A DNA stretch of 7,771 nucleotides, from positions 1 to 7,771 of the IMG/VR virus record IMGVR_UViG_2740892422_000009. One strand, written 5' to 3'. The position numbers were made by a program, and so were the translations under genes. The stretch comes from a virus. Lineage: Duplodnaviria; Heunggongvirae; Uroviricota; Caudoviricetes. The notes beneath the pieces were generated by a model, which saw only the letters and a program-made list of their open reading frames with translations, was not told the origin of the DNA and did no database searches. Below, piece by piece: positions 966 to 7,660 of the stretch (position 1 is the stretch's first letter; every line of letters begins with the position of its first letter).

Positions 966-1304
966 TTATATCATTAATTTTGTTTCGTGCCAGCCTTTGG
1001 TCACCCAGCATTGTGAGTCACCATTACACGGGCATGAATTAACAGGAACTCTCTCGCCGCACTTACCGCAACGTTTTCTGCTGATCGATTTTATACGCCA
1101 GCGCACACGTGCATCATCCTGGCGGCTCAGTAACGCGATGTACTCACCAAACTCGCAAGGCGCACGCCTGAAACGACGCGTGGCACAGTTACGCTCCAGC
1201 ATTTCAATTTCCTGAGCATCAAGTACAAGCTCCAGCTTACGCATACCGGATGATGCTTGCTTGGCTCTCTGATCGGCTTTGTGCTCTGTTGCTGATTTAG
1301 CCAT
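966..1304 (-). CDS. Hypothetical protein with C-terminal Cys-rich putative zinc-ribbon motif (112 aa)
   Basis: ATG at 1302-1304 is preceded by AGGAAAAGCAGA. The C-terminus carries C-x2-C-x8-C-x-C-x5-C (…RCGKCGERVPVNSCPCNGDSQC…), preceded by an Arg-rich helical region, suggesting a small zinc-binding nucleic-acid-binding protein. No family assigned. Confidence 0.5.
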   Translation of the reverse strand: MAKSATEHKADQRAKQASSGMRKLELVLDAQEIEMLERNCATRRFRRAPCEFGEYIALLSRQDDARVRWRIKSISRKRCGKCGERVPVNSCPCNGDSQCWVTKGWHETKLMI

Positions 1305-1345
1305 TCTGCTTTTCCTGCATCAGGAGAAAGACAATCATGGCGGCG

Positions 1346-1447
1346 CGGATACTTCCGGTATCTTTTTACGCGATATTCTCCTTCAATGGCACATACAAGA
1401 AGAGAGCCATCAACAGGAGTGATTGAGGAATCGACAACCAGCAACGC
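1346..1447 (-). pseudogene. Remnant of the C-terminal part of an S24-peptidase (UmuD / LexA / cI-like) gene
   Basis: The minus-strand frame directly after an in-frame TAA (1448-1450) reads ALLVVDSSITPVDGSLLVCAIEGEYRVKRYRKYP. This resembles the recalled UmuD segment [34 protein letters not shown]. There is no ATG (the six-frame track starts it at a TTG), no catalytic Ser/Lys region upstream, and the similarity stops after about 34 codons. Confidence 0.35.
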
Positions 1448-1497
1448 TTAATTATCTATAGTGTCGTATTTGCTTCATAAAATATGGCGAATAACAC

Positions 1498-1532
1498 AAA
1501 GCCCGCAGCAGCTCATTGTGCGGGCTTTTCTT
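1498..1532. terminator. Intrinsic terminator hairpin, possibly bidirectional, downstream of the secreted-protein gene
   Basis: AAAGCCCGCA (1498-1507) pairs with TGCGGGCTTT (1519-1528), giving a stem of 7 GC-rich bp plus A:T extensions. UUUUCUU follows on the plus strand and UUUGUGUUAUU on the minus strand. It lies about 70 nt beyond the stop of the 204-aa ORF. Confidence 0.55.
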
Positions 1533-1597
1533 ATACCTACTTCCTAGAGATAATTCTATGGAGGCATTAAATCAATACTGTCATTGGTAATATCATA

Positions 1598-2212
1598 TTA
1601 TCTAAAAGTCTTTCCACTTTTAACATCTAGGTATATTCTGTTCGACAACGTCATTCCTCCGCAATATGTGAAATAGATGTTTTCACCCTTATTGCTTGAT
1701 GCCATCCACCCTCCGATTTCCTTAAAATCGCTTTCCGTGCAGACCCCTTCATTTATTAACTTCCTAGCTGCCGAAGAAAACTCTTTTTTGTATATACGGT
1801 AGTCATCAGATCCTTTGATTAAAGTATCATCTCCGCTCGCATTTTCAGCAGGATCTGATGGCCTTTCACTGCTAAGATCACTAAGTTTAACCCATTCTGA
1901 AAACTTGCCATTAACGATTCCATTTTTTCTTGTGCAGGATTTATTACCTTCTTTAATATATTCGCTTTCCCCTCCAACACATGAGGCTGAATATGGCTCA
2001 GTTATACGAACCCATTCACCTTTTTTTTCTAGAAAATCTACGCCTTCCCTGAAAAATAGTTTCCCAGCCACTCCACATTTACTTGAAGGGCAGGTATGTC
2101 TTTCCGTTCGATCAACAACAACCCATAGTTTTGATTCATTTTTTGCCATTGCCGATGGTATTTGAGATGAGACAATTAACGTAAGCCCTAAAATTAGTAT
2201 TGATTTTTTCAT
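1598..2212 (-). CDS. Secreted or periplasmic hypothetical protein with Sec signal peptide (204 aa)
   Basis: ATG at 2210-2212 is preceded by AAGGAAAT. The N-terminus MKKSILILGLTLIVSSQIPSAMA|KNE has a basic n-region, a hydrophobic core and an AxA signal-peptidase-I site; there is no lipobox Cys. The mature part has several Cys and two W-containing segments that might be SH3-like repeats (speculative). Moderately A+T-rich. Confidence 0.65.
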   Translation of the reverse strand: MKKSILILGLTLIVSSQIPSAMAKNESKLWVVVDRTERHTCPSSKCGVAGKLFFREGVDFLEKKGEWVRITEPYSASCVGGESEYIKEGNKSCTRKNGIVNGKFSEWVKLSDLSSERPSDPAENASGDDTLIKGSDDYRIYKKEFSSAARKLINEGVCTESDFKEIGGWMASSNKGENIYFTYCGGMTLSNRIYLDVKSGKTFR

Positions 2213-2351
2213 TGTAATTTCCTTTTACTTTTTACAAAGCGTTTAATCATGGCTGATTATCTCTAAGCGTAGTAACAGCCTTGTGCGAAACATGTTACCA
2301 AATCGCCATTTCAGTGTATCCGCAGTTAGGCTGCCACTTCAAGGATTCCTA

Positions 2352-2510
2352 ATTACATGGTACGTAAGCGTAAAATCCCGTTGGTTGGCGGGTAATAACT
2401 CTGATCAAATCTCCCTTGTCTTTTGCTCTTACGTATGCAGCTCTTGTGTATTCAACCCAGGCCTCCAGTTCAGCAATACGCTTACTTCCATCCGAGATAA
2501 CACCTTCTAC
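2352..2510 (-). pseudogene. 52 open codons in frame with, and directly downstream of, the 83-aa ORF past its TGA stop
   Basis: After the TGA at 2511-2513 the same minus-strand frame continues VEGVISDGSKRIAELEAWVEYTRAAYVRAKDKGDLIRSYYPPTNGILRLRTM and ends at TAA 2352-2354. The composition looks protein-like. This suggests a nonsense-interrupted gene of about 136 codons (2352..2762), or a sequencing error. Confidence 0.3.
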
Positions 2511-2762
2511 TCACGCTGCTCGTTGAGTTTTGATTTTTGCTGTCTCCAGCTCAACACGCAGTTTCCCCACCGTTAGCGCAATATCCTCGTTCTCCTGGTC
2601 GCGGCGTTTGATGTATTGCTGGTTTCTTTCCCGTTCATCCAGCAGTGTCAGCACAATCGATGGTGTTACCAGCTCATGGAAAAGGTCCGCGTCAAATCCC
2701 CAGTTGTCATGCATTGCCTGCTCTGCCGCTTCACGCAGTGCCTGAGAGTGAATTACGCTCAC
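2511..2762 (-). CDS. Hypothetical phage protein, 83 aa as called; possibly the N-terminal part of a TGA-interrupted Ea22-like gene
   Basis: ATG at 2760-2762 overlaps the stop of the upstream TraR-like gene (ATGA). The protein MSVIHSQALREAAEQAMHDNWGFDADLF… is acidic and helical. My impression that it resembles N-termini of Ead/Ea22-like prophage proteins is unverified. Confidence 0.55.
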   Translation of the reverse strand: MSVIHSQALREAAEQAMHDNWGFDADLFHELVTPSIVLTLLDERERNQQYIKRRDQENEDIALTVGKLRVELETAKIKTQRAA

Positions 2763-2980
2763 TTCGAACCTCTCTGTTTACTGATAAGCTCCAGATCTTC
2801 CTGGCAACTTGCACAAGTCCGACAACCCTGAACGGCCAGGCGTCTTCGCTTATCTATGGGATCGCCACACTCACAACAATGAGTGGCAGATATAGCCTGG
2901 TGGTTCAGGCGGCGCATTTTTATTGCTGTGTTGCGCTGTAATTCTTCAATTTCTGATGCTGAATCAATGAGGTCTGCCAT
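2759..2980 (-). CDS. TraR/DksA-family C4-type zinc-finger protein (73 aa)
   Basis: 73 aa with C-x2-C-x17-C-x2-C (…CCECGDPIDKRRRLAVQGCRTCASCQ…). Length and Cys spacing match the F-plasmid TraR / phage TraR-like family, which binds the RNA polymerase secondary channel. ATG at 2978-2980. Confidence 0.75.
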   Translation of the reverse strand: MADLIDSASEIEELQRNTAIKMRRLNHQAISATHCCECGDPIDKRRRLAVQGCRTCASCQEDLELISKQRGSK

Positions 2981-3035
2981 CTTCCATTAATCCCTGAATT
3001 GTTGGTTAATACGCTTGAGGGTGAATGCGAATAAT

Positions 3036-3056
3036 AAAAAAGGAGCCTGTAGCTCC
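3036..3056 (-). terminator. Weak intrinsic terminator-like hairpin between the 71-aa ORF and the TraR-like gene
   Basis: Plus strand aaaaaa-GGAGC-ctgta-GCTCC. On the minus strand this is a 5-bp GC stem followed by UUUUUUAUUAUU. Confidence 0.35.
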
Positions 3057-3078
3057 CTGATGATTTTGCTTTTCATGT

Positions 3079-3294
3079 TCACCGTTCCTTAAAGACGCCG
3101 TTTAACATACCGATTGCCAGACTTAAGTGAGTCGGTGTGAATCCCATCAGCGTTACCGTTTCGCGGTGCTTCTTCAGTACGCTACGGCAAATGTCATCGA
3201 CGTTTTTATCCGGAAACTGCTGTCTGGCTTTTTTGATTTCAGAATTAGCCTGACGGGCAATACTGCGAAGGGCGTTTTCTTGCTGAGGTGTCAT
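3079..3294 (-). CDS. Hypothetical small phage protein (71 aa from ATG 3292-3294; the upstream in-frame ATG at 3358-3360 would give 93 aa)
   Basis: The ORF occupies the position of lambda orf61 but is longer and does not overlap orf63 as lambda orf61 does. The first 22 codons of the 93-aa version are Cys/His-rich with no Shine-Dalgarno, so the internal ATG (MTPQQENALRSIARQ…) is favoured, though its RBS is weak (GGGA). Confidence 0.45.
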   Translation of the reverse strand: MTPQQENALRSIARQANSEIKKARQQFPDKNVDDICRSVLKKHRETVTLMGFTPTHLSLAIGMLNGVFKER

Positions 3295-3370
3295 TGAACA
3301 AGTCCCATGTCGGCAAGCATAAGCACACAGAATATGAAGCCCGCTGCCAGAAAAATGCATTCAGTGGTTG

Positions 3371-3562
3371 TCATACCTGGTCTCTCTCATCTGCTTCTGC
3401 TTTCGCCACCATCATTTCCAGCTTTTGTGAAAGGGATGCGGCTAACGTATGAAATTCTTCGTCTGTTTCTACTGGTATTGGCACAAACCTGACTCCAATT
3501 TGAGCGAGGCTATGTGCCATCTCAATGCTCGTTCTTAACTCAACAGGAGATGCTTTGTGCAT
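3371..3562 (-). CDS. Lambda orf63-like small protein (63 aa)
   Basis: 192-nt ORF immediately distal to orf60a, overlapping it by 28 nt out of frame. This is the same length and overlap geometry I recall for lambda orf63. GGGGAG lies upstream of the ATG at 3560-3562. Confidence 0.6.
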   Translation of the reverse strand: MHKASPVELRTSIEMAHSLAQIGVRFVPIPVETDEEFHTLAASLSQKLEMMVAKAEADERDQV

Positions 3563-3717
3563 ACAGCTCCCCGTTTATTATTTATCTCCTCAGCCAGCCG
3601 CTGTGCTTTCAGGGGATTTCGGGTAACAGAAAGGCCGGGAAATACCCAGCCTCGCTTTGTAACGGAGTAGACGAAAGTGATCGCGCCTACCCGGATATTA
3701 TCGTGAGGATGCTTCAT
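3535..3717 (-). CDS. Lambda orf60a-like small protein (60 aa)
   Basis: ATG at 3715-3717 overlaps the exo stop (TGA 3714-3716) as ATGA. The 183-nt length matches lambda orf60a as recalled. The six-frame track begins two codons earlier, at ATG 3721-3723. Confidence 0.55.
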
Positions 3718-4394
3718 CGCCATTGCTTCCCAAATACAAAACCAATTTCAGCCAGTGCCTCGTCCATTTTTTCGATGAACTCCGGCACCATCTCGTCAAA
3801 ACTCGCCATGTACTTTTCATCCCGCTCAACCACGACATAATGCAGTCCTTCACGCTTCATCCGCGGGTCATAGTTGGCAAAGTACCAGGCATCTTTTCGT
3901 GTCACCCACATGCTGTACTGCACCTGGGCCATGTAAGCCGACTTTATGGCCTCGAAACCACCGAGCCGGAACTTCATGAAATCCCGGGAGGTAAACGGGC
4001 ATTTCAGCTCAAGGCCATTGCCGTCACTGCATAAACCATCGGGAGAGCAGGCGGTACGCATACTTTCGTCGCGATAGATGATCGGGGATTCAATAACATT
4101 CACGCCGGAAGTGAACTCAAACAGGGTTCTGGCGTCGTTCTCGTACTGTTTTCCCCATGCCAGCGCCTTAGCATTAACTTCCGGAGCCACACCGGTGCAA
4201 ACCTCAGCCAGCAGGGTGTGGAAGTAGGACATTTTCATGTCAGGCCACTTCTTTCCTGAGCGGGGCTTTGCTATCACGTTGTGAACTTCTGAAGCGGTGA
4301 TGACGCCGAGCCGTAATTTGTGCCATGCATCATCCCCTTGTTCGACAGCTCTCACGTCGATCCCGGTACGCTGCAGGATAATGTCCGGTGTCAT
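3714..4394 (-). CDS. exo: Lambda exonuclease (Red-alpha), 5'->3' dsDNA exonuclease (226 aa)
   Basis: The translation [37 protein letters not shown]… matches phage lambda Exo as I recall it over its full 226 aa. Its start overlaps the bet stop (ATGA at 4391-4394), as in lambda. Confidence 0.96.
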
Positions 4395-5696: not shown

Positions 5697-5829
5697 TTTT
5701 TGGGACTCCTGGCTGATTAAGTATGTCGATAAGGCGTTTCCATCCGTCACGTAATTTACGGGTGATTCGTTCAAGTAAAGATTCGGAAGGGCAGCCAGCA
5801 ACAGGCCACCCTGCAATGGCATATTGCAT
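5665..5829 (-). CDS. cIII: cIII, inhibitor of FtsH-mediated cII degradation (54 aa)
   Basis: Not in the track because it is under 60 aa. Manual translation from ATG 5827-5829 gives [54 protein letters not shown] with TAA at 5665-5667, matching lambda cIII as recalled. AAGGAG lies 6 nt upstream. It overlaps kil by 32 nt in another frame, as in lambda. Confidence 0.88.
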   Translation of the reverse strand: MQYAIAGWPVAGCPSESLLERITRKLRDGWKRLIDILNQPGVPKNGSNTYGYPD

Positions 5830-5855
5830 GGTGTGCTCCTTATTTATACATAACG

Positions 5856-5901: not shown

Positions 5902-6270
5902 TCAGGCGGCTTTGATAGTCATATCATCTGAATCAAATATTCCTGATGTATCGATATCGGTAATTCTTATTCCTTCGCTACCATCCATTGGAGGCCATCC
6001 TTCCTGACCATTTCCATCATTCCAGTCGAACTCGCACACAACACCATATGCATTTAAGTCGCTTGAAATTGCTATAAGCAGAGCATGTTGCGCCAGCATG
6101 ATTAATACAGCATTTAATACAGAGCCGTGTTTATTGAGTCGGTATTCAGAGTCTGACCAGAAATTATTAATCTGGTGAAGTTTTTCCTCTGTCATTACGT
6201 CATGGTCGATTTCAATTTCTATTGATGCTTTCCAGTCGTAATCAATGATGTATTTTTTGATGTTTGACAT
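5902..6270 (-). CDS. ea10: Ea10-like protein (lambda ea10/ssb homolog, 122 aa)
   Basis: The translation MSNIKKYIIDYDWKASIEIEIDHDVMTEEKLHQINNFWSDSEY… matches the lambda Ea10 sequence as I recall it, at the same 122-aa length, and the gene sits directly promoter-proximal to cIII as ea10 does in lambda. GAGGA lies upstream of the ATG at 6268-6270. Confidence 0.8.
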   Translation of the reverse strand: MSNIKKYIIDYDWKASIEIEIDHDVMTEEKLHQINNFWSDSEYRLNKHGSVLNAVLIMLAQHALLIAISSDLNAYGVVCEFDWNDGNGQEGWPPMDGSEGIRITDIDTSGIFDSDDMTIKAA

Positions 6271-6442: not shown

Positions 6443-6460
6443 AACCCGCCTGAGCGGGTT
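6443..6460 (-). terminator. Intrinsic terminator-like hairpin overlapping the stop codon of the novel ORF (tL1-like position)
   Basis: Plus strand AACCCGC-ctga-GCGGGTT is a 7-bp stem with a 4-nt loop. On the minus strand it is followed by UCAUUUUCAC. The TAA stop (6459-6461) of the 289/293-aa ORF lies inside the stem. Confidence 0.5.
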
Positions 6461-7328
6461 ATGACCACTTTTTGTTTGGATTTCGTTGGTGAGCGTGGTT
6501 TACAGGATTATTTGATATACCCCATAACTCTGACTCGCTTATCTCTACACGAGAGAAAGACCTGCTTTCTTTCAGTTCTTTTATAAACCTAGAACCTACG
6601 ATGACATCTATTGTCCCAGAAAGTTCTTGTAAAAGATCTTTGTTTTTTCTGAGGAAGAAAACATCTTCTTTATATTTAATTTTTACATAGAATTTATTCT
6701 GTATTTTTAATATATCAAAGCATGGCAGATATCTATATCCCTCATGCTTTCGCCACTGCTTAACAATTATAACATCTCTTTCATTTACTGCATTAATCAG
6801 CCCAAGACCAAGTATAGGTATGAATATTCTATTGTCTGCCGAAAGCGTACAATTATCACCACCAGGCAAATATGTATAAATCATGTCGGAATTTTTATAC
6901 GCATCAACGAATGCACGTAAGAATCGTACATATTTTTGCCATCCGTTTATACCAAATTTACCATATAAGTATTCTTTATTTGTTAGAAGAAAACTATTTG
7001 TATCAGGAGCCTTATCTACAGACCTGTCGATAAGATCTCCAACTACGTTTACAAAGTCAAAGACAGAGTTTAATAAGAACAATTGTCTTTCAGTCGGGCG
7101 AATTTCAATTATGTAGCCTGGATGAAGACGATATTGCATCTGCTTACGAAGTATACTGAACGCTTGGGTCCGGGCATCTGAAAGCAACTTCCTGTCGCCA
7201 TCGCCGTGAGCATTGTTTCTAATAAAACTGATATAATTTGCTAATTTTTCAGCCTCTTTTTTGTGTTTTTTTCGCTCTGATGCTGAGTCTATTGGTTTTG
7301 GTATGGACTTGTAATCAATTTTCTTCAT
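6459..7328 (-). CDS. Novel A+T-rich hypothetical protein in the N-to-ea10 hotspot (289 aa from ATG 7326-7328; 293 aa from ATG 7338-7340); candidate superinfection-exclusion or abortive-infection gene
   Basis: A long uninterrupted ORF of very low GC (6661-6720 has 9 G+C in 60 nt, against 38 in 60 for bet at 4741-4800). GAGG lies 6 nt upstream of ATG 7326-7328. The alternative ATG at 7338-7340 overlaps the N stop as ATGA. It occupies the slot held by ral/sieB in lambda but is unrelated to either. I see no Walker A motif, transmembrane helix or signal peptide. Confidence 0.7.
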   Translation of the reverse strand: MKKIDYKSIPKPIDSASERKKHKKEAEKLANYISFIRNNAHGDGDRKLLSDARTQAFSILRKQMQYRLHPGYIIEIRPTERQLFLLNSVFDFVNVVGDLIDRSVDKAPDTNSFLLTNKEYLYGKFGINGWQKYVRFLRAFVDAYKNSDMIYTYLPGGDNCTLSADNRIFIPILGLGLINAVNERDVIIVKQWRKHEGYRYLPCFDILKIQNKFYVKIKYKEDVFFLRKNKDLLQELSGTIDVIVGSRFIKELKESRSFSRVEISESELWGISNNPVNHAHQRNPNKKWS

Positions 7329-7336
7329 TACGTACC

Positions 7337-7660
7337 TCATGCCAATGGAATGGATTTCCCTTTAACCTTTTGTCTTCCTTGACAAGTTATACCGAACTCA
7401 CTTGGCTTGCTATACCAAACTCGATGATTCTTGCGCTCAATACGTTGCAGGTTGCTTTCAATCTGTTCGTGGTATTCAGCCAGCACCGTAAGGTCTATCG
7501 GATTCAGTGCGCTTTCTACTCGTGATTTCGGTTTGCGATTCAGCGAGAGAATAGGGCGGTTAACTGGTTTTGCGCTTACCCCAACCAACAGGGGATTTGC
7601 TGCTTTCCATTGAGCCTGTTTCTCTGCGCGACGTTCGCGGCGGCGTGTTTGTGCATCCAT
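7337..7660 (-). CDS. N: N antitermination protein (107 aa)
   Basis: From ATG 7658-7660: MDAQTRRRERRAEKQAQWKAANPLLVGVSAKPVNRPILSLNRKPKSRVESALNPIDLTVLAEYHEQIESNLQRIERKNHRVWYSKPSEFGITCQGRQKVKGKSIPLA. The arginine-rich boxB-binding motif and N-terminal two-thirds match lambda N as recalled, with substitutions clustered in the C-terminal third. The track ORF (144 aa) is an in-frame extension into the leader. TGA stop at 7337-7339. Confidence 0.95.
   Translation of the reverse strand: MDAQTRRRERRAEKQAQWKAANPLLVGVSAKPVNRPILSLNRKPKSRVESALNPIDLTVLAEYHEQIESNLQRIERKNHRVWYSKPSEFGITCQGRQKVKGKSIPLA

Follow-up and report, generated by a model that had tools for sequence, protein, structure and literature searches.

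A stranded internal fragment of a phage-plasmid humD gene at a mosaic junction in the exo-xis region of a lambdoid phage

A stretch of about 34 codons that resembles UmuD, placed immediately after a stop codon and between accessory genes of a temperate phage, raises two questions: from which gene it derives, and whether it still encodes anything. The whole stretch of DNA that was analysed (7,771 nt, hereafter the window) corresponds to the early-left arm of a lambdoid phage, and every gene in it lies on the minus strand. Its gene order starts with N, a 293-aa ORF, DUF2528, cIII, kil, gam, bet, exo and homologues of orf61, orf63 and orf60a, and it ends with a TraR/DksA-like gene, an Ea22-like remnant, a 204-aa gene, the UmuD-like fragment (designated humD fragment below), orf112, DUF2513 and xis. 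With Escherichia phage Chlobot the window shares 99.6% identity, and it is near-identical to E. coli prophages integrated beside ybhC (the lambda attB side). The mosaic junction that had been proposed to lie in an accessory region is thus placed in the exo-xis region of a lambdoid phage.

Several features of the surrounding DNA were recorded along the way. The only Rfam match in the window, Lambda_thermo (the cIII thermoregulator; 5784-5842, minus strand; 88.5 bits, E = 4e-21), confirms a lambda-like cIII leader. The interval between N and cIII contains the AT-rich 293-aa ORF (6459-7340, minus strand) and the DUF2528 protein (5902-6270, minus strand). In lambda, ral and sieB occupy this position; the 293-aa ORF, for which no Pfam or PADLOC match was obtained, could be a candidate exclusion or defence moron. 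PADLOC gave no match for the neighbouring accessory proteins either. The segment running from int-xis through the humD fragment to DUF1317 was also found, with 98-99% identity, on plasmids of 118-454 kb (pABWA45_1, handle L009, and matches H155-H169) from E. coli, Klebsiella, Citrobacter and Enterobacter; its neighbour in pABWA45_1 is Rac-type rrrD and trkG DNA, to which it has been joined. The segment is therefore a chunk of chromosomal prophage that plasmids have captured and carried into several genera.

The fragment itself and the stop codon that precedes it are located as follows.

1342-1447, minus strand: internal humD fragment (UmuD'-like, S24 family), codons 46-80 of 129 plus one base, encoding ALLVVDSSITPVDGSLLVCAIEGEYRVKRYRKYPR
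1448-1450, minus strand: TAA in the humD frame, directly upstream of the fragment

The 34 codons that follow the TAA (1450-1448) start GCG TTG CTG GTT GTC GAT and encode ALLVVDSSITPVDGSLLVCAIEGEYRVKRYRKYP at 1447-1346 of the minus strand, exactly where the original prediction had put them without stating the strand. Nucleotide homology extends a little further, to 1342, so that the remnant comprises 106 nt or 35 codons (27% of the gene). Codons 1-45 and the C-terminal 49 codons (81-129) are absent, and the 45 codons on the 5' side have been exchanged for unrelated cassette DNA. The fragment had been described as C-terminal; both BLASTN and the HumD profile (below) place it in the interior of the gene instead. 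It begins at the equivalent of UmuD residue 70/71. Most of the S24 beta-fold is missing from it, both the Ser60 region (the 'GDSM' segment of UmuD), which falls in the absent first 45 codons, and the C-terminal strands. The assertion that no catalytic N-terminal region is present holds for the Ser60 region, but the Lys97 equivalent, the general base, is still encoded, as K28 of the fragment in a VKRY motif that aligns with K97 of UmuD. Lacking the remainder of the fold, this residue is without consequence.

BLASTN aligned the region 1342-1447 with intact humD genes (129 codons) from phage-plasmids of the P1, D6 and SSU5 types at 83-92% nucleotide identity (E from 1e-33 to 1e-38). The alignments to humD of PhiR41_1 (94 of 104 identities, E = 7e-38) and of D6 (92 of 106, E = 2e-33) are ungapped, and in both cases the homology stops sharply at the two edges of the block, the flanks being without similarity. 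Identity to humD of P1, P7, SJ46 and RCS47 is 82-83%, and about 640 plasmid-borne full-length humD genes match the block at 92% or less. No full-length allele more than about 92% identical to the fragment was found among the alleles searched, so that the direct parent allele is unsampled. At the protein level, 32 of the 35 residues are identical to PhiR41_1 and 31 to D6. The NCBIfam equivalog profile for HumD (NF051876) was matched with E = 2.1e-14 over profile positions 46-80 of 129; the score of 53.6 bits does not reach the cut-off of 120 bits, with 35 of the 129 positions present, and the intact HumD of PhiR41_1 scores 215.5 bits. The E-values for the NCBIfam UmuD subfamily and LexA profiles were 1.5e-5 and 0.097, respectively. 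PHROG families named 'UmuD-like' matched the fragment with E = 2e-12 to 2e-13, and solved UmuD/UmuD' chains were aligned (E ~4e-4) over UmuD residues 71-101, the very segment with which the original prediction had compared the fragment. The sole Pfam match was Peptidase_S24 (PF00717; E = 0.009, 16.2 bits, below the gathering score of 23.3 bits). Its alignment covers profile positions 54-84, and the score is weak because only 31 of the 116 positions are present. As Pfam alone is sub-threshold, the DNA-level and NCBIfam searches are decisive.

That sub-threshold Pfam score is what could be held in favour of a coincidental or low-complexity similarity, an outcome that the original prediction had named as fatal to its own claim. 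However, the DNA matches, with E-values down to 1e-38, involve many independent intact genes, the HumD profile gives 2e-14 and the fragment is not of low complexity. Chance similarity was ruled out on these grounds, and its probability is practically nil. The proposal of a 'umuD-like or repressor-like' parent fared differently in its two halves. A LexA- or cI-type repressor shares the S24 fold with UmuD, and the LexA profile does give a marginal match (E = 0.097), but this is to be set against 2e-14 for HumD and 1.5e-5 for UmuD, against 83-92% nucleotide identity to humD genes and against a location in the exo-xis region rather than the immunity region. In addition, the longer form of the gene described below starts MGFPSPAADY, like UmuD', and has no HTH domain. 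The BLASTN matches to humD, this start and the relative strength of the HumD and LexA profiles ruled out a repressor remnant, for which the probability is negligible. Taken at the level of sequence, the evidence identifies the parent as humD, the UmuD'-type gene of P1/D6/SSU5-like phage-plasmids.

Intact humD genes are found in a different setting. Among the best 80 IMG/VR loci, 77 are full-length in phage-plasmid contexts, and nearly all full-length copies have hot, phd-doc, Mrp or other phage-plasmid markers as neighbours. In E. coli chromosomes, no humD copy exceeds a form consisting of nucleotides 1-241, with the exception of one that is near-full-length (H94). As for the intact version that was to be sought in related prophages, a longer form with codons 1-80 exists (L008, below), but none of the best 80 IMG/VR loci carries a full-length humD in a lambdoid context.

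On its downstream side the fragment abuts the remains of another gene, followed by an intact one.

1342-1362, minus strand: downstream crossover patch GATACCGGAAGTATCCGCGCC, delimited by a four-way base-level alignment
1297-1341, minus strand: 3'-end remnant of ninX (DUF2591), the last 14 codons AMIVFLLMQEKQNG plus TAA, from alignment to ninX of TL-2011b and 2G7b
966-1304, minus strand: orf112, intact (phrog_536 'transcriptional regulator'), from the PHROG match and its likeness to TL-2011b/phiV10

When the window, the ninX-regulator region of TL-2011b, ninX of 2G7b and humD were aligned, the minus strand was seen to track humD through GATACCGGAAGTATCCGCGCC and ninX from GCCATGATTGTC onwards. 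The switch lies inside TCCGCGCC (1342-1349), an 8-nt exact microhomology within a 17/21 match. This match, between a D6-type humD allele and ninX, is the best ungapped 21-mer similarity between the two genes, and 17/21 was attained by only 2 of 200 shuffled versions of ninX. With the humD allele of PhiR41_1 the crossover patch gives 15/21, which is still the top match. The ninX remnant and the humD fragment are in different frames. The TAA of the ninX remnant overlaps the ATG of orf112, as it does in TL-2011b and phiV10, where ninX and an orf112-type 'transcriptional regulator' are adjacent; window positions 973-1362 are 90% identical to this gene pair in both phages. It appears from this arrangement that orf112 arrived together with the tail of ninX, as a ninX-orf112 module. 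We also observed that orf112 is Cys-rich at its C-terminus and that PGAP reports an internal stop in its homologues in four related prophages (L008, L011, L013 and L014), and orf112 may itself be dispensable. Two IMG/VR contigs (L033 and L034) carry an extra deletion of about 190 bp, equivalent to window positions ~1150-1340, between the near-repeats GCCGCCATGAT and GCCGCCAGGAT, which joins the humD frame in-frame to the Cys-rich C-terminal half of orf112 (...RYRKYPRRQDDARVRWRIKSISRKRCGKCGERVPVNSCPCNG...). This is one more deletion at a microhomology in this spot, and its product is a predicted chimera.

The upstream boundary is formed by a cassette of different base composition.

1448-2390, minus strand: AT-rich cassette, GC 38% versus 44-46% in the flanks; the edge at 1448 is sharp and that at 2390 approximate
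1598-2212, minus strand: 204-aa gene, signal-peptide/lipoprotein-like, with a lipobox-like N-terminus
1498-1528: hairpin in the cassette, -26 kcal/mol, z = -2.4

The junction falls between 1447 and 1448, and the homology of the window to the longer form L008 ends exactly at 1447. The scar is thus a recombination remnant, as had been proposed, but one with two separate flanking junctions and not the trace of a single deletion. The cassette and the short fragment occur together in 133 of 5,426 complete E. coli genomes, the short form always being accompanied by the cassette, and the hairpin sequence occurs in 30 IMG/VR loci, each with the short form and the same junction. A native context for the cassette was not found: the phage collection yields only Chlobot, the E. 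coli genomes always show the same junction, and neither the 30 IMG/VR contigs nor the GTDB representative genomes provide another one. The nearest relatives of the 204-aa protein in GTDB representative genomes were detected at the protein level, in Pseudomonas paracarnis (66%) and Roseateles (35%), and the gene is a moron-like import. Pfam gives only weak hints of SH3_3/LPAM for the protein, and its PHROG match is phrog_8310 (function unknown). IS1 is inserted into, or replaces, the 204-aa gene in several prophages of E. coli. Beyond the cassette lies a third decayed gene within about 1.4 kb, an ead/Ea22-like gene that is frameshifted and truncated (2511-2762, minus strand, continuing to ~2363) and is marked as a pseudogene by PGAP in relatives; 69 nt of the window (2391-2459) are 90% identical to the eaA-like gene of L008 and of SSU5-like phage-plasmids.

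Whether the fragment could nevertheless be translated depends on one open reading frame.

1127-1444, minus strand: mechanical 105-aa TTG ORF, made of 34 humD codons and ~70 out-of-frame codons through the ninX remnant, overlapping orf112

The fragment had been reported to have no start codon. There is indeed neither an ATG nor a GGAG-type Shine-Dalgarno sequence before the TTG, but a TTG is present at 1444-1442 and the humD frame stays open past the fragment, as RRHDCLSPDAGKAEW, down to 1127; an ORF lister therefore reports 105 aa. This ORF might be taken for a genuine truncated UmuD-like protein, for example a dominant-negative form or decoy for UmuD'/UmuC or RecA. It is open in the window and in most of the copies that are nearly identical to it, it retains the Lys97 equivalent, it is matched by the PHROG UmuD-like families (E ~1e-13) and it is annotated as 'UmuD-like protein' in the record of phage Chlobot. 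Yet only 34 of its 105 residues derive from humD, the rest being out-of-frame read-through of the ninX remnant and orf112, and most of the S24 fold is missing. The family phrog_10470 ('UmuD-like protein', 79 positions) aligns 20 residues beyond the humD/ninX junction, and because the alignment runs past this junction the family was probably built from these same truncated pseudogene ORFs; the name given in Chlobot is due to the PHROG matches. The exact 105-aa product is absent from a collection of 15 billion proteins. No LexA box (CTGT-N8-ACAG) was found in the window, no Rfam family was matched at the locus when the whole window was scanned, and a scan of 900-2500 for promoter and terminator consensus sequences gave counts not above those in shuffled sequences. 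From the sequence we infer that the ORF would not be expressed.

The alleles point in the same direction. When eight related alleles were compared base by base, an in-frame stop was found in three and loss of the TTG in two. The former are those of three sister prophages (L011, L013 and L014) which share both junctions and in which GAA has become TAA at humD codon 69 (E69>stop); in L013 and L014 the TTG is lost as well (TTG>TTA). The derived changes in L013 and L014 (T>I, V>A, S>C and A>V) affect second codon positions for the most part. The opposite holds between the window and intact humD alleles: of 10-14 differences, 8-12 fall at third positions and second positions are unaffected, the signature of divergence accumulated while the gene was still functional, before its truncation. 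Among these alleles the reading frame is not maintained by selection, and PGAP/RefSeq has a pseudogene at the same locus ('DNA repair protein; incomplete; partial in the middle of a contig'). A real truncated protein is thus extremely unlikely, and the 'UmuD-like protein' of Chlobot is judged spurious.

A search of E. coli genomes with intact humD revealed a chromosomal copy in a prophage of E. coli 13C1065T (L008; match H97) that matches nucleotides 1-239 of the gene. There, a LexA-box-like sequence TACTGTATATATACACAGCA (CTGT-N8-ACAG), an AAGAGG ribosome-binding site and an ATG precede humD codons 1-80, and past codon 80 follow the identical ninX junction, orf112, DUF2513 and the xis-proximal genes. 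The window is 97.9% identical to L008 from 1447 down to 243. Of 5,426 complete E. coli genomes, 4 carry the long form (L008 and three more), as do 3 IMG/VR contigs. Over positions 2600-4239 (1,640 nt) L008 shows 98.5% collinearity with pLF82, an SSU5-like phage-plasmid, and this collinearity stops at the humD/ninX junction. The window and L008 differ at 10 of 106 positions in the patch versus 15 of 1,099 downstream of it (Fisher, P = 2e-5); the 3' 36 nt of the patch (1342-1377) are identical in the window, L008 and D6, and are one base different in PhiR41_1. Since L008 carries a humD allele different from that of the window, it is not simply the ancestor, nor is the order of events proven. The simplest reading of these alignments is that one of the two lineages later swapped its part of humD with a resident phage-plasmid, with a crossover in the 3' 36 nt. 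The same junction could also have formed twice independently, since it lies at the best microhomology, but this is less parsimonious because the flank is 98.6% identical.

The step in divergence inside the patch and the collinearity between L008 and pLF82, which reaches as far as the junction, agree with a homologous crossover at this place, and they could also be taken to mean that the fragment is kept by selection as a recombination 'linker' for the exchange of modules between lambdoid prophages and phage-plasmids. Use in recombination needs no selection for the patch, however, and the patch gathers stop codons and second-position changes. The exchanged form is limited to 4 of the 5,426 genomes and neutral persistence accounts for all of the data, so that a selected linker is very unlikely. 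A less demanding proposal is that the remnant records gene flow from SSU5/P1-like phage-plasmids to lambdoid prophages and may still be a working substrate for it, the long form having arisen, or having been re-allelised, when a prophage crossed over with a resident phage-plasmid by homology inside the patch. We regard this as a tentative possibility, somewhat on the doubtful side.

The reading that we prefer, and consider very probable, is that 1342-1447 is a non-coding, non-functional internal remnant of humD, stranded by two recombination events in the exo-xis accessory region; the core of the original prediction, a non-functional recombination scar of a UmuD-like/S24 gene, is thereby supported. 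In one event, a short-homology illegitimate crossover would have joined humD at nucleotides 234-241 to the last 14 codons of ninX, bringing in the ninX-orf112 module at the cost of humD codons 81-129. In the other, with a breakpoint at humD nucleotides 135/136, the AT-rich cassette with the 204-aa gene and the hairpin would have been placed directly upstream, and the LexA-box promoter, the ribosome-binding site, the ATG and codons 1-45 would have been lost. The sequences show the homology, the two boundaries, the long form and the decay of sister alleles directly; the order of these two events, like the mechanism of recombination, is something we infer. The remaining 35 codons would give no useful product and would drift neutrally. 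The only ongoing role of the remnant would be a passive one, as a stretch of homology to phage-plasmid humD that has apparently been used for allelic exchange.

According to McLenigan et al. (1999, J Bacteriol 181:7005; cited through PMC4713147), HumD of P1 is a functional UmuD' homologue. The fragment aligns to positions 46-80 of the HumD orthologues (P1, P7, D6, RCS47 and the SSU5/pLF82-like phage-plasmids; NF051876), but it differs from these genes in having no promoter, no start codon, no N-terminal 45 and no C-terminal 49 codons, and in lying in a lambdoid exo-xis region whereas theirs lie beside hot, phd-doc or Mrp. Judged by its domain, Ser60 region, signals and frame, it would descend from the HumD family without qualifying as a functional member. 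Compared with E. coli UmuD/UmuD' (PDB 1umu, 1ay9, 1i4v and 8gmt), the fragment matches residues 71-101, the beta-strands that bear Lys97; it is only ~50% identical, however, has no Ser60 and has an incomplete fold, and it is not the chromosomal umuD. The RefSeq/PGAP pseudogene of the ybhC-side prophages is the same locus, ~99.7% identical. The remnant is thus a scar of a familiar type, a pseudogene that RefSeq flags already. In most PGAP records the only defect noted is a missing C-terminus; the N-terminal truncation, the humD parent, the ninX junction and the long form do not figure there.

Mosaic junctions, 'moron' insertions and short-homology illegitimate recombination between modules are all familiar in lambdoid phages. 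The present locus resembles such junctions in its sharp boundaries, in the gene remnant at a module boundary, in the AT-rich hairpin-bearing cassette and in the microhomology crossover. Nothing categorical sets it apart; the one difference is that the donor of the remnant was a phage-plasmid gene and not a gene of a lambdoid phage.

For annotation, the main implication is that the 'UmuD-like protein' CDS of Chlobot is to be treated as a pseudogene ORF and that the same probably applies to phrog_10470; this family spreads a misleading name through PHROG-based annotation, Chlobot being an example. The fragment gives no sign of a capacity for SOS mutagenesis. The locus provides a base-resolved example of the assembly of a lambdoid accessory region, in which a crossover at the best microhomology that two unrelated genes offered, the abutment of a cassette and neutral decay would each have left their trace. 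It also documents DNA of pLF82/SSU5-type phage-plasmids in lambdoid prophages, which will not surprise a specialist. If the tentative proposal of continuing exchange within the patch is true, dead gene fragments would be bridges connecting two gene pools of temperate phages that are otherwise separate.
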